A stretch of 64,000 bases of DNA, from contig NZ_SBIV01000006.1 of assembly GCF_004765795.1 (NCBI RefSeq), positions 62,001 to 126,000 on the forward strand, in the 5' to 3' direction. Each line of letters opens with the position of its first letter. The stretch's first letter is position 1. The DNA is from Halorussus marinus. GTDB lineage: Archaea > Halobacteriota > Halobacteria > Halobacteriales > Haladaptataceae. The position numbers and the translations under genes were made by a program. The notes beneath the pieces were generated by a model. The model did not search any database, was not told the origin of the DNA, and was given only the letters and a program-made list of their open reading frames with translations. Shown in pieces: positions 5,491 through 62,613 of this stretch.

Positions 5491-6804
5491 TCACGATTCG
5501 GCCTCCGTGCTGAGTATCTCGTAGATGGCGTCGGTCACGTCCTCGGGGCTGTTGACGTAGCTGACCGCCACCTCGTCCGAGTCCCCGAAGTGCTCGTCGA
5601 CCTCCTCGGCGTGAGTCGCGTTGATCGCCTTCCCGTCGGGCTGGGTCTCGACGTAGGCGTGGAGGTTCGCCGGGATCTCCTCCATCATCGGGATGACGTT
5701 CTCGCTCGTGTCGTTCCGGGAGTTCTCGCTGTCGCCGGCCGCGAACACGTAGCGGTTCCACTCGGCCCACGGGTACCGCTCGTCGAGGATCGCCGCCGCG
5801 AGCTCGTAGGCCGAGGAGATCTTGGTGCCCCCGCCCGACCGGATGCCGAAGAAGTCGTCGCGCTCTACCTCCCACGCGTCGGCGTCGTGGGCGATGTAGA
5901 CGAACTCCGCGTTGTCGTACTTGCCTGTCAGGTACCAGTCCAGCGGCGTGAAGGTGCGCTCGACCAACTCGCGTTTCTTCTCGCGCATCGACCCCGACAC
6001 GTCCCGGATGTTGACCACCACGACGTTCTTCTCGCGCTCCTCGACGATCTCGGGGTAGCGGTAGCGCTCGTCCTCCTTGCGGAACGGGACGTGCCGTATC
6101 CCCTCCTCGCGGATCTTCTGGGCGGCGCTCCGCCGGGGCGTGTTTGCCTCCATTTCCTCGAGGCTCGCCCACGTCGTGCGCTCCTCGGCCGAGAGGGCGC
6201 CGTACTGCTCGTCGAGCCAGTGGCGCGAGACGGTGATGCTCTCCTCGCGGGCCCACTCGAACGCCCGGTCGGGCCCCCAGCCCTCGATCTTCAGCGCCTC
6301 CCGGACGTAGTCGGGGTCGAAGTCCATCGCGAGCTTCCGCTTGAGCCCCTCCTTGAACATTCGCTCGAAGTCGAGCGTCGAGTCGGGCCCCGTCCGGGTC
6401 ATGTCGGTGAAGTCGCCTTCTTTCTCCTCGATCACCTCCTTGCCCTTCGGTTCGAGATCGAGCCCGAGCTCGTCGTCGAGCTCCTCGGCGAACTCCTCGG
6501 GGTCCATCTCGTAGTAGTCGTGCTCGCCGCCCTCCTCGCCGGGCTCGTCGCCCTCCTCGCCGTCGTCGCCGGGCTGGGGCTGGGGTTGGCCCACTGGGTC
6601 GCCCACGTCGGGCTCGCCCTGTCCGACGCCGCCCTGATCGAGTTGGTCGTAGGCGAACTCGGGCAGGTCGACGATCTTGATCGGGATCTGTATCTCGTCG
6701 GGCAGGCTCTGGCCGAGATCGCCGTACTGGATGAACTCCGCCAGATCCTCGCGCTTTGCCTCCCCGACCTCCCGGTAGCGTTCGAGGTCCTCTCTCAGTC
6801 CCAT
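5491..6804 (-). CDS. YeaH/YhbH (DUF444) vWA-domain protein
   Basis: Start [10 protein letters not shown] overlaps the upstream stop; MIDAS-like RDVSGSM, SGGGT and AGDSEN; acidic Gly/Pro linker. The longer ORF in the track is an out-of-frame extension through prkA2. Confidence 0.92.
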
Positions 6805-9146
6805 TTGTAGCTCACCTGGCTCATGACGTGTTGGCTGGTCAGTTCGGCCGACGCCGGCGAGTAGCCGAACAGCTCGACCATGTTGTCGATGGTCTCGGCT
6901 TTCAGCGCCGCGGTCTCGGTGTCGCTCGGCGGGTCGGCCCACTGGTCGGGGTCGAAGTCCTCGTACACCCGGCGGACGTCGTCCCAGTCGTAGTTCGCCA
7001 GCACGGTCTTGATGATCGGTATCTCCTTGGGGTCGATGTCGCCGACCTCGAAGTCCTCGTCGCGGCTCTGCCACGCGTGGCGGTTCAGCGCGGTGATCAC
7101 CTTGTTGCGCCGGAACTCCTCGACCGCCGGCGAGGCGGCGTGGTCGGCGGCGTAGCTCTCGGGACCGAACCGGCCCAGATGCTCGGTCTCGAACACCTTC
7201 ATCTTCAGGGCGTCGGGGCCGACGCGCTCGCCGCGGTCGTTCTCGACGGTCTCGTCGGTCGCCCACGCGTAGACGTGCTCGACGTACTCCTCGACGGTCT
7301 CCTCGTCGACGCGCTTCTCGCGCATCATCGCGTCGAGGACGTCCGCCTCCTGGCGCTGGAAGATGTGGTTTTTGACGGGCACGAGCCGGTTCTCGTACTC
7401 GGTGCGCTCGGCGGTCGAGAAGACGGGGGCGTCCGAGAGCCCCTCGGCCATCGCGTTGAGGATGTCCCGGGGCATGATGACTTCCTCGACCGAGTACTCG
7501 GCGTGGGCCCGGTCGCTCTCGTCGTTGAGCAGGTCGGCGATGCCGTCCCGGGTGTAGGTCACCGGGATCCCCTCCTCGCCGTCCGCGGCGTCGTCGTCGA
7601 ACTCGAAGTCGTCTTTGTCGAGCCGGTCGTCGCCGTCGAGCAGGTACCCCCGATCGAACAGCGTCGCCTTGTCCACGAGGTCGAGCCCCGCGGGCACGTC
7701 GTCGCCGTCGAGCCGAGTCACCACGCTGTAGAGCGCGGCGGCCTCGACGGCGTGTGGCGCGAGTTCGCGCTCGGCGACGCCGTCGCCGTCGCTCCGGACC
7801 CGGACCCGGAGGGGCTCGCGGATCAGCCCCTCGAGCTCGTCGTAGCTTTCGGCCCGCCAGACGTCGGTCTCGTTGGTCAGCTCCCGGCGGATGAGCTCGG
7901 CTTCGAGGCTCAGGTTGGTGAGGTACTTGAACCGCCGGCGGTCGAGCCGGCGCTTCAGCGCCTTCAGCGGGTCGGCGCCGCCGGCGTCGGCGTGCTGATT
8001 GAGCTGGGCCTCCAGATCGGGGTTCGAGATGATGACGAGCTGGGTGTCGATGTCCATCTGGATGCCCTTGTCGAGTTTCACCGTCTGCTCGTCGGGGACG
8101 TTCAACAGCTTCTGGAGCAGGTCGGCGTGCTGGGCGGCGTCCTCGACGATGGTCAGCAGGCCGTTGCCCTGCGAGAGCACGCCGTCGTAGCTGAACGCCT
8201 GGGGGTTCTTGCGTCCCCGGGAGTCGAGCTCCTGCAACATCCCGCGCATCCACGAGCCGACGAGGCGCTCTTTGGGCGGACCCGAGTCCTCCGAGTGGAG
8301 CACCCCGATCCCCTGACCGACGTCTACGACGTAGTTTTTGACCCGGAGGTGGCTGGGGTCGGTGATCGCCGAGAACAGGTCGTCCTCGCCGGTCCGGCGG
8401 TACTGCTCTTCGAGGAACTCGTAGGCCTCGCGGCTGAACGGATCGAGGTCGCTGTCGACTCGCACGTCGATGTGGTCGTCGACCCGCGCGTTGATCTCGG
8501 CGAGGATCTCCTCGCGGACCGCCGGCGGGAACACGGTCAGGGGGTTCGACTGGACCGGGCTGGCGTACCAGTTCTCCTCGTCGGTGGCGGCCCCGCCCTC
8601 GCCGTACGAGAGGCTCCGGCCGCCGCTGGCGCTTGCGACGTTCCACTCCATGGTGTAACGCCGGCCGGCCTCGGTCTTCGAGAACTCCCGGAGACCGTTG
8701 ACCAGACACCGCTTGAGCTCGGACTTGCCGGTCGCGGTCGGGCCATCGAACCAGATGATCTTCTCGGCTTTGCCCCGCTCGGCCGCGATCGACCGGAGGT
8801 CGTCGACGAAAGCGTTGAGCACTTCCGTGTTGCCGAGGATGGCGTGCTCGCCGTCGTTGGCGGGATCGTCGAAGAACCGGTAGCGCTCTTTTTCCTCGCC
8901 CTCCTCGATCACGGTCCGGGTGCCCATCGACTCGATGGCTTCGAGGAGGTACTTGCTCGCGTGGGCGGCGACCGTCGGGTTTTCGAAGGCCTCCTCGACG
9001 AACGTCGCGAGCCCCTTGGGCTCCTCGTAGGTCTCTCTGAGCTCCCGATCGGCGTCCTCGATGAACGTCTCGCCGTCGACGGGGTCTCGGTCCCCGGTTC
9101 GGGCGGCGTCCTCGCGGTGCGGGCGGTCGTCGTGGCCGGTCGCCAC
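6795..9146 (-). CDS. prkA2: PrkA/YeaG family AAA+ serine kinase, second copy
   Basis: Walker [18 protein letters not shown]; lies between prkA1 and yeaH; the GTG start is uncertain. Confidence 0.9.
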
Positions 9147-9148
9147 GG

Positions 9149-11212
9149 TCAGTCCTCCATCTCCGCGCGGGCGACCTCGGCGCCGGCGAACTCCAGCACC
9201 TCCTTGGCCCCCTCCCGCGAGTACCCCTGGTCGATCAGGGCGTCTATCCAGGCGTTCTGTTCGTCGTCGTCCATCTCGTTGGCCGACACCAGCGCCGAGA
9301 AGTTGATGTTGTGCTTCTTGTCCTCCCAGAGCTTGCGTTCGAGGGCGCGGCGCAGTCGGTCGTTGTCCTGGGGGTCGAACGGCGACCCCTCGCGTGCGCG
9401 CCGGGAGACCCAGTTGCTCACTTCCTGGCGGAAGTCGTTCTTGCGGTCGCGGGGGATGTCGAGCTTCTCCTCGACCGCCCGGAGGAAGCTCTCGTCGGGC
9501 TCTTGCTCGCGGCCGGTGAGCTCGTCTTCGACGGTGTCGTCGTCGATGTACGCCATGACGTGGTCCATGTACTTCTCGCCCTGGCGCTGGATCTCCTCGA
9601 TGTCGTAGGCCAGCGCGTGACGGACGTCCTCGATGGCCCGGTCCTTGTACTCCTCGCGGACCATCTCGAGGTAGCGGTAGTACGTCTGGAAGTTCTCCTC
9701 GGGGATCGAGCCGTGGTTCTCGAGGTTCTCCTCGAAGTGGTTGAACACCGACAGCGGGCTCAGAAAGCCCTTCTCGCGGTGGGTGGAGTTCATGATGGCC
9801 TCGGCGATCTCGTCGCCGATGAACCGGGCCGAGACGCCCTCCATCCCCTCGCCGATGTCGGCGCTCTCCTCGCCCTCCTCGCGGAGCTTCTTCACGTCGA
9901 CCTCGTCGCTCTCCTCGCTCTCGCCGTTGTACGCTTTGGTCTTCTGGAGTAAGTCGACCGTCTCGGAGTCTGGCTCCTCGACGCGGGTGAGCACGCCGAA
10001 CAGCCCGGCCATCTCCAAGGTGTGGGGCTCGATGTGGACGTCGGGCACGTCGGCGTTGCCAAGCATCTTCCGGTAGATGTTGGCCTCCTCCTCGAACTCC
10101 AGGACGTACGGGAAGTCGATCCGCTTGGTGCGGTCGTTGAACGCCTCCATCTTCTCGTCGCCTTTCTTGTCGCGGTACTCGGGCATGTTCGTCCGGCCGA
10201 CGATCACCTGATCGATGTCGATCCGGGGGTTGTTCTTGGGTTTGATCGTCTGCTCTTGGGTCGCGTGGAGGAAGTCGTAGAGGAACTCCCGCTGGAGCTT
10301 CAACAGTTCCTCGCCGCTGAAGATGCCGCGGTTGGCGTTACAGAACGCCCCCGAGTAGTCGAACGCCCGGGGGTCGGACTCGCCGTAGATGGCGATCTTG
10401 CTGTAGTTGACGTCGCCGGTCAGCTCGGTCTCGTCCTGATTTTTCTTGTCTTTGGGCTCGAACGTCTCGACCGCCTGTCGTTTGTTCTCGTCGGCGGTCA
10501 GCCGGATCACCTCGACGTGGTTCTCGAGCACCTGCTGGATGTCGTCGTCGTAGTGGGCGAGCAACTCGTCCATGTAGAACGCCGAGGCGGGGTCGAGCGA
10601 CTGCTCGTTCTGGATGGTGTAGGGCGCATCGAGGTTCTCGTTGAGGTCCTCGACCACCCGCTGGCGCTGTTCGACCGGGAGGAGCACGAGCGGGTCTTGG
10701 TTCATCGGCGACCGGACCACGTCGTCGGCGGGGTCCTGATCGTGGATCACGTCACAGAGGTTGGTCCACCGGTAGGTGTACATCCGGCCCTCCTCGCGGA
10801 GGGTGTAGTCCTCGAAGTAGGTCCGGACCTGTCGGTCGAAGTCGGACTTCCCGGAGCCGACCGGGCCGAGCAGGAGCTTGATGCGCTTTTCGGGACCGAG
10901 CCCGCGTGCGCCCGACTTGACCTTGTTGACGAACTCGTGGATGGCGCGGTGGATCTCGTGGCCGTAGAAGGTGTTCTCGCCGTCGTGGAGGGGGTCCTCC
11001 GAGGCGAGCAGGTACTCGACCACGCCGGCCTCCTCGTCGTACTCGGTGCCGTAGTAGTCGAACATGTCCGCGACCCGCTGGTGGGCGTTGCGGGCGACTT
11101 TCGGGTCGGCGTACACCTCTTCGAGGTACCAGTCGAACGACTTGGTCTCGCGGAGGTCTTCGGGCATCGATTCCTGGTATCGCTGGCTGAGTTCTTCCAG
11201 TGTTTCCGTCAT
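9149..11212 (-). CDS. prkA1: PrkA/YeaG family AAA+ serine kinase
   Basis: Walker [32 protein letters not shown]. Confidence 0.93.
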
Positions 11213-12173: not shown

Positions 12174-12626
12174 ATGTCGTCCATCACGCTCGTCGGGACT
12201 CGCCTCGCCGAGCCCGACCGGGAGTTCGTCTACCGCGGGGAGTCGACGGCCTGCGAGGGCTGTCCGTACCGGAGCCAGTGTCTCAACCTCTCGGAGGGCG
12301 TCCGCTATCGGATCACCGACGTCCGGGAGGGCGCCCAGACGCTCGACTGTGCCGTCCACGACGCCGGCGTCACCGCGGTCGAAGTCGAGCCCGTCGGGAT
12401 GAAGGCAAACGTCCCCTCGAAGAACGCCTACGCCGGGAGCAAGGCCGAACTCGCCGGCCCCTGTCCCCACACCGACTGTCCGAGCCACGAGTACTGCGAG
12501 CCCGTGGGCGCGGCGTTCGACGAGGAGTACCAGATCGCCGAGAAGCTCGGCGATCCGCCCCACGACTACTGCATGCTGGACCGCGAGCTGACGCTTGTGG
12601 AGTTCGCGCCGAAAAGCGACAGTTAG
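12174..12626 (+). CDS. UPF0179 family protein
   Basis: ITLVGTRLA, CEGCPYRSQCLNL and further Cys/His pairs. Confidence 0.88.
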   Translation: MSSITLVGTRLAEPDREFVYRGESTACEGCPYRSQCLNLSEGVRYRITDVREGAQTLDCAVHDAGVTAVEVEPVGMKANVPSKNAYAGSKAELAGPCPHTDCPSHEYCEPVGAAFDEEYQIAEKLGDPPHDYCMLDRELTLVEFAPKSDS

Positions 12627-13429
12627 TCCGGGCTCGCGGCGCTGGCGTAGACGAACTCCCGGAGGAGCTTGCCCGCCAGCGCCGCGGCCTGCCCGTCGTC
12701 GCGGTCGTTGACCTCCACGACGTCGAAGCCGTCGGCCAGCGGCGCGACCGACCGCACCACCCCGCGCATCTCTCGGGGCGCGAGCCCGAACGGCTCGGTC
12801 GTCCCGGTCCCGGGTGCGAACCCGGGGTCGGCCGCGTCGATGTCGACGCTGAGATACACCGACTCCCCCTCGAAGTCGGGCGTCCAGTCGGCGACCGCCT
12901 CGGGTTCGACGACGGTCACGTCGGGCTCGCTCGCCCGGTCGTACTCGGCTTCGCTCCCGGTCCGGGCGCCCAGAATCACCGCCTCATCGGCGACCGCGAG
13001 CGCGCGGCGGGTCGCGGTCGCGTGGCTGAGCTCGTTGCCGTCGTACTCCTCGCGGAGGTCGAGATGGGCGTCGAGACAGACGAAGACGTCGGGGTCGACC
13101 GCCCGCACGCCCGCGACCGAGACGGTGTGTTCGCCCCCGAGCAGAACGGGGACGGCGCCGTCTCGGACCGCGTCGGTCGCGACCCCGCCGAGGTACTCCA
13201 GATACTCGGCGGCGTCGTCCCACGCGCGGACGTCGCCGTGGTCGTGGACTGCGAGATCCGAGAAGTGTCGGTCGGTTCTGGCGTCGTAGTCGTCGAAGGC
13301 CCGGGCGTACTTGCGGATCCGATCGGGGCCGAACCGCGTCCCGGGCTGGAACGTGGTCGAGACGTCGAGAGGCGCGCCCACGACCACGTAGTCGGCTCGA
13401 TCGCGGTCGGCGGACGCGCCGGGGAACAT
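12623..13429 (-). CDS. speB: Agmatinase (ureohydrolase family)
   Basis: GGEHTVS, LDAHLDL, SVDIDAADPGFAPGTGT. Confidence 0.93.
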   Translation of the reverse strand: MFPGASADRDRADYVVVGAPLDVSTTFQPGTRFGPDRIRKYARAFDDYDARTDRHFSDLAVHDHGDVRAWDDAAEYLEYLGGVATDAVRDGAVPVLLGGEHTVSVAGVRAVDPDVFVCLDAHLDLREEYDGNELSHATATRRALAVADEAVILGARTGSEAEYDRASEPDVTVVEPEAVADWTPDFEGESVYLSVDIDAADPGFAPGTGTTEPFGLAPREMRGVVRSVAPLADGFDVVEVNDRDDGQAAALAGKLLREFVYASAASPD

Positions 13430-13810
13430 CTACTCGAGGATCTTGCGCTGCTCGTCCATCTCGAGGTACTCGATCTCGTCGTCGGGCGAGAGGTCGACGT
13501 CCGAGGGGGTCTTGATGGTGATGGTCTCGTACGTTTCGAGGTCCATGACCTGTGCGATCTCGTCGCTCTCGACCGCGACGACCTGCCCCTGTTTGCGGTG
13601 GATGATGGGGACCCAGATCTTCGCGTCGACGGGCTGAGAGAGGCTTCGCTTCTTACCGTCGAAGACGCCTTCGGCGTCGATCCGGGCCTTCGCGCTACCG
13701 TGCTTGCCCGGCTTTGCGGTGCTGTAGGAGTTGATCTCGCACGCCGCGTCCTCGATCATCACGTAGTTGCCTTCCTGGAGGTCCCGCACTTCCTTCTGCT
13801 CTCTTGCCAT
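13430..13810 (-). CDS. eif5a: Translation initiation factor aIF-5A
   Basis: Hypusination motif [14 protein letters not shown]; directly abuts speB. Confidence 0.97.
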
Positions 13811-58815: not shown

Positions 58816-60516
58816 CTACTGGGTCGCCTCGCCGACGAGTTGGCTCAGTTGCGCGGGGTCGCTCGCGGTCCCCGCTCGCTCGCCGTCGACGACGACGTGA
58901 GCGGTCCCGGCCTCGTACTCGCGGTCCCGGAGCTCTCCGACCGCCGGGATCACGACCTTCTCGTGGTCGGCGACCCGGAGCGCGGCCCGGTGGAGGTCCG
59001 ACCCCGCCGGGTCGGCGACCTCGATCACGAGCGGCTCTCGGCAGAGCCGGGCGGCCGCGGTCGCGTAGCTCGCGACCTGCACCCCGAAGCGGTCGGCCGC
59101 GCCCGCGAACGCCGCGACCGCTTCGGCGGCGGCCTCGCGGTAGCGGTCCTCGCCCGACAGGATCGCGAGGTCGATCAGCGCGTCCGCGAGTTCGGCGTTG
59201 CCGTCGAGCGGTCGGAGCGGTCGGTCGAGCAGTCCCGGCCCCGACCGGGGACCGTCGACGAACGCCCCGGTGTCCTCGTCCCGGAGCGCCTCGAGCGCGC
59301 GGTCGGCAACCTCGCGGGCGGCCCCGAGGGACGCCGCGTCGCCGGTCACCTGTCGGGCGGTCGTCAGCGCGCCGAGGAGGTGGGCGTGGTCGGCGAGCAG
59401 GTCGGTCTCGCCGGTCCGACCGTCGGCCCGAAAGTGGGTGATCGCGCCGTCCGCGACCAGTTCGTCGAGGACGTGATCGAGCGCGCGCTCGGCGTACGTC
59501 CGGGCGCGCTCGTCGTCGGTGTACGCGTGGAGGGTCAACAGCGCGTCGGCGGCCATCGCGTTCCAGTCCGCGAACGCGGTGGCGTCGACCGCCGGCGGGT
59601 CGGCGGCCTCGCGGTCGCTCGCCGGCCGGTCGTAGTAGCCCGGCTCGTCGGCCTCGCTCTCGGAGTCGTCCGGGGCGTCTGGCTCGTCGCCGGGCGCCTG
59701 ACTCCCGGCGAACGACTCGCCCGTCCAGAGCGTCGTCGTGAGGTACTCGACCGTCCGGTCGGCGGGCTCGCGGTACTCCGCCTCGCCGGTGTAGAGGTAC
59801 GCCTCGGCGAACGCCCGGACGAGCGCGGCGTTGGTCGACAGCAGTTTCTCGTGGTGGACGTCGGTCCAGTCTCGCCCCTCGGCGAACCGGAAGAACCCAC
59901 CGTCGTAGTCGTCGAAGAGGTGCTCGCGGACCGCCGTGAGGCTCGCCAGCGCCTGCTCGCGCTCGCGCTTCAGGGCGAACTCCGCGGTGCGGGCGAGCGG
60001 GAACTTCTCGCTGTCGCCCCACCCGCCGAACTGGTCGTCGAACTTCTCGCCGAGCTGGCCCGCGACCAGCCGCTCGATCTCCGGCGACAGCTCGCCGGCG
60101 GGCGGGTCCTCGCGCAGGCTTCGCGGGACCCGGGCGGCGTCCCGACCCTTGTGGGTCCAGAGGTCCCGGACGCGCTCGACGACCTGCCGCATGCCGTCGA
60201 CTCCGAGGTAGGTCGCGCCGGTCAGCGTCTCGCCCTCGGGGGTGAGAAACACGTTCGAGGGGAACCCGCCGACGTTGTACCGCTCGCGGACCCGCGGCTG
60301 GCGGTCGATGTCGACCCGAATCGGGACGAACGAATCGTTGACGTTGGCCGCGACCATGGGGTTGCTGTAGGCCTCCCGGTCCATCCGGTGACACCACGAA
60401 CACCACGTCGCAGACAGCGAGAGCAGGACGGGCTTGTCGGCCGCTCGGGCCTCCTCGAAGGCGTCGGCGCCCCACTCGCGCCACTCGACTTTGGTTCGCT
60501 CGGCGCTCTCGTTCAT
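58816..60516 (-). CDS. DUF255/YyaL-like protein: thioredoxin domain plus alpha-toroid
   Basis: WREWG, WCSWCHRMD (CxxC), GGFP, GGFFR, EKLL. Confidence 0.88.
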   Translation of the reverse strand: MNESAERTKVEWREWGADAFEEARAADKPVLLSLSATWCSWCHRMDREAYSNPMVAANVNDSFVPIRVDIDRQPRVRERYNVGGFPSNVFLTPEGETLTGATYLGVDGMRQVVERVRDLWTHKGRDAARVPRSLREDPPAGELSPEIERLVAGQLGEKFDDQFGGWGDSEKFPLARTAEFALKREREQALASLTAVREHLFDDYDGGFFRFAEGRDWTDVHHEKLLSTNAALVRAFAEAYLYTGEAEYREPADRTVEYLTTTLWTGESFAGSQAPGDEPDAPDDSESEADEPGYYDRPASDREAADPPAVDATAFADWNAMAADALLTLHAYTDDERARTYAERALDHVLDELVADGAITHFRADGRTGETDLLADHAHLLGALTTARQVTGDAASLGAAREVADRALEALRDEDTGAFVDGPRSGPGLLDRPLRPLDGNAELADALIDLAILSGEDRYREAAAEAVAAFAGAADRFGVQVASYATAAARLCREPLVIEVADPAGSDLHRAALRVADHEKVVIPAVGELRDREYEAGTAHVVVDGERAGTASDPAQLSQLVGEATQ

Positions 60517-60593
60517 CGGTACCCCACGGTTCGTGTCTGTCTGGGATGGGTCTTGCTATACTCGCGCGGCTCGGCGGGCGGTCGGACTCGGGG

Positions 60594-60755
60594 CAAGAGA
60601 GCAGAAGGACCGGCGCCCCGCGGCCGGTCGGGCCGCGAGGAGTCGAACGGGCGCGGTCCTCCTGCGAGTCGCGTTCGAGCGCCCTCCGCCGGACGGCATC
60701 ATCGGGCGACTCCGGCCGGTCACCTGCTCGGAGCCGGTTCGCAAAACGCCGTGCG
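60594..60755 (-). ncRNA. Candidate structured small RNA containing a canonical kink-turn
   Basis: TTTAAG at 60783-60778; K-turn at 60708-60680; long hairpin 60665-60601 with two G-U pairs on the minus strand; pyrimidine tract at the 3' end. Ends are estimated. Confidence 0.55.
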
Positions 60756-60855
60756 TCCGAGTCGACGCCGCGCCCACTTAAATTCCGCGCCGGCAGACCG
60801 TCGGCCCGACCGCCGGTAGCGAGACGCTTACGGGGATGGGCGCCAACGTCGAACT

Positions 60856-61371
60856 GTGAACCGAACGCGGTTCCTGTTCGGACTGGCGGCGGTGCTCGCG
60901 GGCATCGCCACGCTCCAGTTCGTGCTGGCGTTCGTCTACTCGCCGGCCCTGCTGGGGGTGGCGCTCCCGTTCGGCGCGGCCGCGTATCTGGTGTGGTACC
61001 AGGCGAGCGGTCGACTCCGCGAGCGCGTCGAGCGCGGGCGGGCAGGCCAATATCGTGACCGCGGGACCGAGGCCGGGGGGTTCGGCGCCGGCCCGCGAGA
61101 GTCGTTCTCGGGACGCCGGGGCGGGTTCGGCGACCGCGAGGCCGGGGGCGGCCGTCGCCGCCGGACTCGCGGGGCGGCCGGCCCCCGGACCGACGCCGGC
61201 CCGACCGCGGCCGAGGCGTACCGAACGCTCGGCCTCGACGCCGACGCCGACGAGGAGGCGGTCCGGGAGGCGTACCGCGAGCGCGTGAAGTCGGTCCACC
61301 CGGACCGCGAGGGCGGCGACGAGGAGGCGTTCAAACGGGTCAACGACGCCTACGAGCGCCTCCGGGAGTAG
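60856..61371 (+). CDS. Membrane-anchored J-domain (DnaJ-like) protein
   Basis: Two N-terminal TM helices, Gly/Arg linker, C-terminal J domain with HPD. Confidence 0.9.
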   Translation: MNRTRFLFGLAAVLAGIATLQFVLAFVYSPALLGVALPFGAAAYLVWYQASGRLRERVERGRAGQYRDRGTEAGGFGAGPRESFSGRRGGFGDREAGGGRRRRTRGAAGPRTDAGPTAAEAYRTLGLDADADEEAVREAYRERVKSVHPDREGGDEEAFKRVNDAYERLRE

Positions 61372-61596
61372 ACGATCCGGGGTCGGCGGGCCGACCGCGG
61401 GGACGTGCTAAATATCAGTGTCTCGGCAGTTCCGAGATGGGACCTCTCAGTTCCTGCAAAACGACTACTGCTCTCTTGGCGATCCAAATCCTCCGCGACT
61501 GTCGGTTGTCTCGCTTTCGTATTCGGTCGCAGGGGTGATGTTTTTTATACGGGGCCTGCGGATGTGAGATCGAACGCAGTCCCCGCGGTGACTACC

Positions 61597-62613
61597 ATGT
61601 TGCAGGAAATGGACCAGTCGGAGTTCGGGCAGTTCGTGGCGGCCCTCTGGGACCAGCAGGGCTGGGAGACGCAGGTCAAGACCGACGACGGTCGGACGTT
61701 CGTCGCGGTCCAGCGCCCCGAGACCGGCGACGAGGGACTGCTCTGGGCGATCCCGGCCTCGGCCGGCGAGGTCGGCGGCAAGCAGGTCCAGCAGTTCGTC
61801 AAACTCTGTCGGGAGTACGGTGTCGACGAGGCCGCCATCGTCTCGGCGGGGTCGGCCTCCGACCACGCCGAGAAGGCCGCCCAGGGGACCCAGATCAAAC
61901 TGCTCGACGGTGAGGGCGTGATGACGTTCCTAGAGCGTCGCGACATGACCGATCTGCTCGAACGCCACGCCGGGGGCGCGACCGGAGGCGGATCGGACGG
62001 CGGGTCGCCGGTCGACCGAGTCCGGGCGATCGCCGAGACCGCGGTCGGGCGCGTCTCGGGCCTCGCCGGCGGGGTCGACTCGCGGGGGCTCGCACTCGCG
62101 GTGGTCGTCGCGGTCGCGATCGTCGCGGCCGGGGTGCTCGGCGTACCGTCGATCCCGTTCATCGGCGGGGGCGGCGACGACATCACCGCCGAGTCGGTCT
62201 CCCCCGAGGGGGCGAACGCCAGCCTCTACGTCGCGTGGAACGCCGCGACGACCGACACGATCGACCCCAACGAGTCCGACGAGTTGGCCTACCGGGCGCC
62301 CGAGGGGACCCGGTTCGTCGTGGTTCGGATGTCGGTCAACAACACCGGCGAAACACAGACGCCGTTACGACAGGCCGCGTTCCGGTTCCGAGCCAACGGC
62401 ACGACCTACGACAACCAGACGCTGGCCGACCACGACGGCTTCGTCGACCTCCCGATGGGGCCGACATCGAACCGCGTGGTCTGGACCGTGTTCGTGGTTC
62501 CCGAGGGGGTTTCGGGCGGCACGCTCGTGTACGACCAGAACGCGACCGACGCGACGGTGGCCGTCGAGTTCGAGCGCGACACCGCCATCTCGACGAACGT
62601 GACCGCGCGGTGA
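61597..62613 (+). CDS. Mrr-like restriction endonuclease-fold domain, TM helix and DUF4352-like extracellular domain
   Basis: LQEMDQSEF..FVAALW..QGW, VGGKQVQ, AAIVS, IKLLDG; one TM helix; C-terminal FVVVRMSVNNTG...VFVVP with many NxT/S sequons. Confidence 0.72.
   Translation: MLQEMDQSEFGQFVAALWDQQGWETQVKTDDGRTFVAVQRPETGDEGLLWAIPASAGEVGGKQVQQFVKLCREYGVDEAAIVSAGSASDHAEKAAQGTQIKLLDGEGVMTFLERRDMTDLLERHAGGATGGGSDGGSPVDRVRAIAETAVGRVSGLAGGVDSRGLALAVVVAVAIVAAGVLGVPSIPFIGGGGDDITAESVSPEGANASLYVAWNAATTDTIDPNESDELAYRAPEGTRFVVVRMSVNNTGETQTPLRQAAFRFRANGTTYDNQTLADHDGFVDLPMGPTSNRVVWTVFVVPEGVSGGTLVYDQNATDATVAVEFERDTAISTNVTAR

Follow-up and report, generated by a model that had tools for sequence, protein, structure and literature searches.

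What lies between the DUF255 gene and the divergent J-domain gene of Halorussus marinus, and on what might it act? The surrounding window, a 64,000-nt stretch of contig NZ_SBIV01000006.1, had been read in a first-pass annotation as carrying an unannotated RNA of ca. 160 nt with a standard kink-turn (k-turn), either stand-alone or a leader of the DUF255 gene. The promoter, the k-turn and the conservation of the locus support a stand-alone RNA (Table 1). On the minus strand, the k-turn, both stems of the following hairpin and the complementarity between linker and loop are found at the positions first given for them, whereas the TATA box, placed one base off, lies at 60782-60777. We set the start of the RNA near 60752, taking the TATA-to-ATG distance of the aIF5A gene as a guide. 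A sigma-70 promoter/terminator scan, whose reach does not include archaeal promoters, found nothing.

Table 1. Features of the RNA locus and of its proposed target within the window
Feature	Position	Strand	Basis or remark
DUF255 thioredoxin-domain gene, neighbour	58816..60516	-	PF03190
Conserved motif upstream of DUF255	60560-60549	-	kept in 10/10 spacers
TATA box TTTAAG of the RNA	60777..60782	-	sequence; TTAAG kept in 6/6 orthologues at the locus
Predicted small RNA, ~160 nt	60590..60752	-	promoter spacing and conservation; both ends predicted
Variable 5' region	60709..60752	-	alignment A2; missing from shortest relatives
Standard k-turn hairpin, presumed L7Ae site	60680..60708	-	alignment A1, 31 sequences
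Linker/loop complementarity, 60678-60672 with 60649-60643	60643..60678	-	present in window, not conserved
Hairpin P3	60601..60665	-	basal stem contains 5' half of antisense element
Antisense element, exact complement of aIF5A mRNA nt 3-20	60592..60609	-
Divergent J-domain gene, neighbour only	60856..61371	+	PF00226
Target site, nt 3-20 of aIF5A coding sequence	13791..13808	-
aIF5A gene	13430..13810	-	NCBIfam PRK03999, E 5e-53
Agmatinase gene	12623..13429	-	TIGR01230, E 2e-52

Anatomy and distribution of the predicted RNA

A standard k-turn is described as a C helix, a 3-nt bulge, tandem G.A/A.G pairs and an NC helix (PMC4316175). The sequence of the RNA, alignment A1 and the pair counts all give this arrangement, in the order C-stem, GAU bulge, tandem G.A/A.G pairs, U.G pair, three G-C pairs and tetraloop, and most relatives carry the canonical CUGA on the non-bulged strand. 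The k-turn core was used to select the sequences, and covariation was tested by the outer pairs only. Conservation and covariation, proposed earlier as a check on the k-turn, are both seen: 6 of the 10 orthologous spacers retain the motif, the outer pair of the C-stem changes from C-G to U-A in 4 of 30 rows, and U.G and G.U are swapped at the pair after the G.A pairs. The covariation score of the pairs outside the selected core was reached by 1 of 500 shuffles, a figure that is inflated by related sequences. L7Ae binding is described as a general property of k-turns (PMC4316175), and the host genome has an L7Ae gene; by analogy, we infer that L7Ae would bind the k-turn of this RNA.

Hairpin P3 has a 12-bp basal stem (60665-60654 with 60612-60601, minus strand) and a 10-bp apical stem (60640-60631 with 60625-60616, minus strand). 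The apical stem is not conserved among relatives, in which the interior of P3 ranges from 4 to >100 nt. The 5' region of the RNA is dispensable, and the shortest relatives (L051, L053) are about 90-100 nt long. The folding energy by itself is only modestly unusual (z = -2.2; 7 of 200 shuffles are equally stable), and in the unconstrained minimum-free-energy fold the k-turn is not cleanly formed and the 3' toehold described below is partly paired.

Of ten orthologous J-domain/DUF255 spacers, six retain the whole set of promoter, k-turn, basal stem and 3' element, a degree of conservation that chance does not explain, and the other four lack all of them. These spacers speak against the suggestion that the RNA might be a leader of the DUF255 gene, which has an upstream motif of its own in all ten, including the four without the RNA. 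Many family members, moreover, face a convergent gene. A cis-regulatory 5' leader of DUF255 was rejected on the grounds that the RNA is missing in four of the ten spacers and is found at many other loci. The possible pseudoknot between linker and loop fared no better: of 8 relatives, 3 can pair over at least 7 nt, each time through unrelated sequences, and 5 over no more than 5 nt. We therefore regard the RNA as stand-alone and the linker/loop pairing as incidental. Among named organisms, the DUF255 gene has its closest relatives in Halorussus species. Beyond the J-domain gene, positions 61405-62613 (+) of the window encode an Mrr-type endonuclease domain fused to DUF4352 in a membrane-anchored arrangement.

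Pattern and model searches found the RNA in 15 of 20 genomes of the host genus, as well as a contig-cut k-turn in a sixteenth; it was not found in the remaining four (G002, G005, G015 and G018). Up to four copies coexist in one genome. Members also occur in six other families, with a patchy, multi-locus distribution within the Halobacteria; some are on plasmids, including named plasmids of Halobacterium, Haloplanus, Halorussus, Natronosalvus, Halomontanus and Natronorubrum. The k-turn pattern matches 22 of 401 Halobacteria genomes, with two hits for the reversed control, and the covariance model matches 22 of 151. Most of the Halobacteria genomes searched gave no member of the family, which, together with the four genomes of the genus that lack it, argues against a role in core homeostasis. 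Five plasmid records, pHV4 of H. volcanii among them, gave no credible model match (the best, at E 0.1, falls within a reading frame), and the surroundings of the plasmid-borne aIF1A gene in two species of Haloferax contained no copy of the RNA.

Scans with the first k-turn pattern gave 48 loci in metagenomes and a single locus in viral sequences, none with the antisense tail. In a second viral scan, none of 42 k-turn-pattern loci scored above 13.5; scores of at least 14 are reached by 30 of the 37 family RNAs. Fifteen of the 48 metagenome loci (L060, L061, L063, L067, L070, L073, L075, L077, L079, L080, L081, L091, L092, L095, L098) share a near-identical k-turn hairpin with a longer C-stem, located between an ORF ending in ...KKFEDQM and an ORF starting with MRHG. 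The arrangement resembles a bacterial rpoA-rplQ spacer, and the hairpin is a candidate bacterial k-turn.

Complementarity to the start of the aIF5A mRNA

The tract at the 3' end of the RNA had been read as U-rich. It is an antisense element to the start of the aIF5A gene, a match that the first-pass annotation overlooked and that points to a target for the RNA and to how it probably acts. This 18-nt complement sits directly after the AU of the AUG. It is the only exact complement of the 3' element elsewhere in the genome and the longest complement in the genome to any part of the RNA, with 4.6e-5 copies expected under a fourth-order Markov model. aIF5A is also the top-scoring of 2527 predicted gene starts (18 vs 14.5 for the runner-up), and cofolding of the RNA with this start yields a net ddG of -23.3 kcal/mol, with 0 of 150 control starts as good. 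Nine of the 18 antisense nucleotides lie in P3 and nine lie outside it; the latter (60600-60592) are likely to serve as a toehold. The 5' strand of P3 is an imperfect mimic of the mRNA that varies between A and G opposite an unchanged U, whereas the antisense (3') strand is nearly fixed, as would be expected if an outside partner constrains the antisense strand.

A TTTATA motif at 13840-13835, beginning 30 nt before the aIF5A ATG and similarly spaced in all 35 aIF5A genes listed, implies that the mRNA is leaderless here. The agmatinase ATG directly follows the aIF5A stop with no gap, so the two genes probably share one mRNA. Just downstream of this pair, window positions 6795-11212 (-) hold two adjacent long ORFs (687 and 710 aa), which we take to resemble PrkA-type kinase genes. 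The H. volcanii orthologue of aIF5A, HVO_2300, is listed as leaderless, at distance 0, in dRNA-seq data (PMC4983044 Table S1). The same table lists two antisense start sites at chromosome positions 2169368 and 2169383, 50 and 35 nt inside the H. volcanii aIF5A gene; if extended to the gene start, these antisense transcripts could cover the same mRNA region in cis. Both aIF5A and agmatinase are reported to be essential in H. volcanii (PMC3828320, PMC5178350). The aIF5A transcript is described there as short-lived, and its depletion is associated with a mild growth defect only, in the rows of the source considered here (PMC3828320).

The reading that we favour, and hold with moderate confidence, is that of a stand-alone, trans-acting antisense RNA, bound by L7Ae, that would repress initiation on the aIF5A-agmatinase mRNA. 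L7Ae would bind the k-turn and stabilise the RNA. The single-stranded 3' toehold would then capture the opening codons of aIF5A on its leaderless mRNA and go on to displace P3, the computed product being an 18-bp duplex over nt 3-20. A duplex over the start codon would keep ribosomes from loading at the 5' AUG and may also hasten decay of the mRNA. Levels of aIF5A, and probably of the adjacent agmatinase, would fall, and translation would slow under some stress or resting condition.

The sequence of the tail tracks that of the aIF5A gene in its host. In family f1, the tail position facing codon 3 of aIF5A matches in 20 of 20 RNAs, with C in all four RNAs from hosts with AGA and U in all 16 from hosts with AAA; on a FastTree phylogeny of one locus, the hosts with AGA occupy three places. 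The RNAs of G001 and G016, which were found by the k-turn model alone, carry the predicted codon-3 variant. Across families, 32 of 37 RNAs pair with the aIF5A of their host better than with at least 99% of 300 control starts, and for 29 of the RNAs no control start does as well. The control starts all come from G000. Several RNAs are near-duplicates, so that these counts overstate independence. The 99% control is passed by 22 of the 27 RNAs found independently of the tail; the other 10 were found via the tail and are circular in this respect. Three loci judged to be chance matches in coding sequence (L150, L153, L157), one locus without a tail (L162) and one truncated by a contig end (L147) were dropped before this count; with the first four of these counted as misses, the figure is 32 of 41. 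The five RNAs that fail to beat the control (G110, G310, G203, G333 and G439, among 17 outside f1) still match the host start over 6-9 nt, several of these matches lying in predicted loops.

Tails also change with lineage in families f2, f6, f13, f16 and f18. In G390 and G052, 13 of 13 nt match the local aIF5A start; the match extends over 15 nt in both G316 and G190, where it fits a CAA codon, over 17 nt in G198 and over 19 nt in G405. Among three further tail matches in f6, a k-turn lies upstream of two and is missing from the third. G436 and two f1 copies fit the aIF5A of another lineage as well as or better than their own, which suggests recent transfer and weakens the view that the tail is always adapted to its host. 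The long members have extra hairpin loops complementary to aIF5A nt 1-5 to 1-8 and nt 10-17, and the first of these loops tracks codon 2 of the host (GCG or CCG). This long subgroup comprises L155, L158, L159, L160, L161, L152, L154, L134 and L205; such loops are missing from the RNA of the window. In G461, two aIF5A starts with the same upstream sequence (L268 and L269) lie at opposite ends of one contig, possibly as a result of assembly overlap.

These lineage-specific changes bear on the idea that the tail is a non-functional relic, whether a fragment of the aIF5A 5' end left in inverted orientation or a U-rich terminator with a chance match. Archaeal terminators are U-rich, as is the tail, and in a few members the opposite strand still has an ATG; however, changes in both tail and loops track lineage, and the promoter and k-turn are linked to the tail at many unrelated loci, which leaves a relic barely credible. 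From these sequence comparisons, we judge the RNA family to be real; its target is strongly supported and the antisense mechanism is what we propose for it. Targets of archaeal intergenic sRNAs are described as hard to find, and sRNA regulation of leaderless mRNAs, the majority in haloarchaea, as an open question (PMC5867862). The family supplies one target supported by covariation, a natural form of the compensatory-mutation test.

Comparison with known RNA classes

The RNA was taken to be new, and Rfam 15 contains no family for it: the two weak hits (E 1.2 and 4.2) are below the gathering threshold. When eight homologue loci were searched against Rfam, the single match was a tRNA. The k-turn strands have what we take to be a resemblance to the SAM-I riboswitch, which was rejected because the connectivity is reversed and there is no Rfam match.

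With a predicted promoter of its own, a gene located away from that of its target and conserved complementarity to an mRNA, the RNA has the attributes of a trans-acting antisense sRNA. It is like sRNA162 of M. mazei, reportedly an archaeal trans-acting sRNA, and like sRNA41 and SHOxi in being intergenic, in having its own promoter and in its proposed pairing with an mRNA encoded elsewhere. M. mazei sRNA41 is described as masking ribosome-binding sites (PMC5867862), and H. volcanii SHOxi as destabilising its target (PMC8583180). The RNA is set apart from all three by its k-turn, by a predicted, almost perfect duplex of 13-23 nt that covers the beginning of a leaderless mRNA, and by one target, an essential translation factor, across several families with covariation.

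Box C/D guides, including the haloarchaeal guides for tRNA-Met and 23S, similarly combine box C-like and CUGA strands in a k-turn with an antisense element. They are defined by C and D boxes at the ends, internal D'/C' boxes and spacers (PMC2584109), whereas here a single motif is closed by a tetraloop, the antisense element forms the 3' end and is not followed by a D box, and the partner is an mRNA. In such guides, the antisense element directly precedes a D or D' box. The absence of a D box or ACA box in guide position, noted in the first reading of the locus, holds across the family: CUGA follows 0 of 30 tails (within 8 nt) and ACA follows 1 of 30, in a set in which two regex picks are not the true tail. 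A box C/D guide was rejected on this count and because there is one motif only, with a 4-6-nt loop. The H/ACA guide sR-h45 of H. volcanii (PMC7075261) is described as having an apical k-turn on a hairpin, a stand-alone gene and a size similar to that of the present RNA, which differs from it in lacking an ACA/ANA box, a bipartite pocket below its k-turn and any match to rRNA. A proposed scan for complementarity to rRNA and tRNA yielded nothing beyond chance, the longest matches being 9 nt to 23S, 8 nt to 16S and 9 nt to a set of 81 predicted tRNAs, while shuffles reach 9-12 nt against 23S; a box H/ACA guide was rejected on these grounds and on the ACA count. sR-h45, the tRNA-Met guide and the 23S Gm guide are described as broadly conserved, whereas the present family is patchy, a distinction drawn from description.

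These data also make it highly improbable that the RNA is an atypical modification guide, in which a C/D-like k-turn would bring fibrillarin or Cbf5 to the start of the aIF5A mRNA. The box C-like and CUGA strands of most members and the guide-like length of the duplex would suit such a role, but the short loop joins the C and D strands and leaves no guide ahead of D, the antisense element lies elsewhere than in an internal-loop pocket, and the tail counts and the 9-nt ceiling on rRNA and tRNA complements do not fit it.

K-turn RNAs outside the guide classes have been described as L7Ae-bound leaders and orphans in Sulfolobus (RIP-seq) and as sRkB and sRkC in P. abyssi. As described, these bind L7Ae and either work in cis or have yet to be given a target in trans, whereas a trans target is proposed here. 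A literature search, made largely without subscription papers, found no title or abstract on a k-turn sRNA, or on any sRNA, directed against aIF5A mRNA. The family has apparently been undescribed so far.

Neighbouring genes and rival modes of action

We surveyed the neighbours of the RNA at 40 loci of 1.5-7 kb each. Recurring genes encode a DUF7504 protein (13 loci), a copy of aCPSF1 (11), a small zinc-finger protein (7), a macro domain (5), a copy of aIF1A (4), TFB (3) and RNase J (3), and none is universal. These spare expression factors suggest a stress or resting programme. Two annotated plasmid regions place the RNA within an island that also carries genes for aCPSF1, RNase Z, RpoM, macro-domain and DUF5786 proteins. 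The G000 copy is solitary, flanked by a pair of ordinary genes on the chromosome. The genes downstream of the RNA show no conservation, and the next one is convergent in at least eight loci. No Cas-operon protein was found among 47 neighbouring ORFs, the only related feature being a TnpB-type zinc-ribbon domain in two, and three annotated plasmid regions of 24-31 kb contain no cas operon.

This setting bears on whether the same pairing might act as an RNA toxin, such that silencing of aIF5A arrests growth and the RNA serves the mobile island as an addiction or abortive-infection device, checked by P3 or by an unseen antitoxin. The target is essential, and the family is patchy, multi-copy and often found on plasmids or in low-GC regions near transposases. 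A precedent is CreT, of the type VIII toxin-antitoxin systems, which like the present RNA is a small haloarchaeal RNA that could arrest translation; it is described as adjoining a cas operon together with the CreA repeat RNA, and known cases sequester a rare tRNA via a mini-ORF (PMC8501985, PMC9458426). CreT/CreTA was rejected, given the survey for Cas-operon families and the fact that no tRNA-sequestering mini-ORF was seen. A toxin of any kind is unlikely in view of the same survey, the lack of a partner gene common to all loci, the solitary G000 copy and the presence of up to four copies per genome.

The frequency of RNase J-type and aCPSF1 genes among the neighbours would accord with a protective or storage role, in which the duplex and L7Ae cap the 5' end of the aIF5A mRNA against 5'-to-3' decay and keep it silent but intact for restart. 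Pairing that begins 0-2 nt from the mRNA 5' end and the reported instability of the aIF5A mRNA (PMC3828320) point the same way. Pairing at the start codon of a leaderless mRNA should, however, stop translation for as long as the RNA is bound, and no release mechanism is visible; we regard storage as unlikely as well.

A version of the leader idea would make the RNA a sensor: aIF5A mRNA would open P3, and the RNA would refold or bind so as to act elsewhere, for example on a downstream gene. The toehold-and-displacement anatomy lends itself to this, and some loci have a same-strand gene downstream (DUF255, aIF1A, TBP). Such a role is nonetheless very unlikely, as the downstream genes are unconserved and often convergent, and DUF255 keeps its upstream motif where the RNA is missing.

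If repression by a trans-acting antisense RNA, the reading preferred here, is correct, k-turn/L7Ae RNAs would extend from modification guides to mRNA regulation in trans, and cells or plasmids would control the essential factor aIF5A after transcription. A bolder proposal built on the same sequences, which we put forward only tentatively, is that the family may represent a new class of archaeal ribonucleoprotein, in which an L7Ae-bound k-turn RNA would recognise the capless 5' end of one leaderless mRNA via toehold and loops and silence or destroy that mRNA, possibly with the co-carried aCPSF1 or RNase J. It would then amount to a mobile switch that imposes dormancy or growth arrest through aIF5A and the enzyme that modifies it.

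Two gene arrangements recur around the family. One is a haloarchaeal plasmid island with extra genes for aCPSF1, RNase Z, RNase J, aIF1A, RpoM, macro-domain, DUF5786 and amphi-Trp proteins and hisI, in varying order; it is represented by L185 (NZ_CP096663.1), L285 (NZ_CP098520.1), L188, L190 and L286. The other is the DUF7504 gene, often accompanied by the small zinc-finger gene, which is missing at G000 and at its 13 loci can lie on either side of the RNA (for example, L054:1821-2504, L009:1620-2366, L130, L132, L152, L156, L160 and L166).
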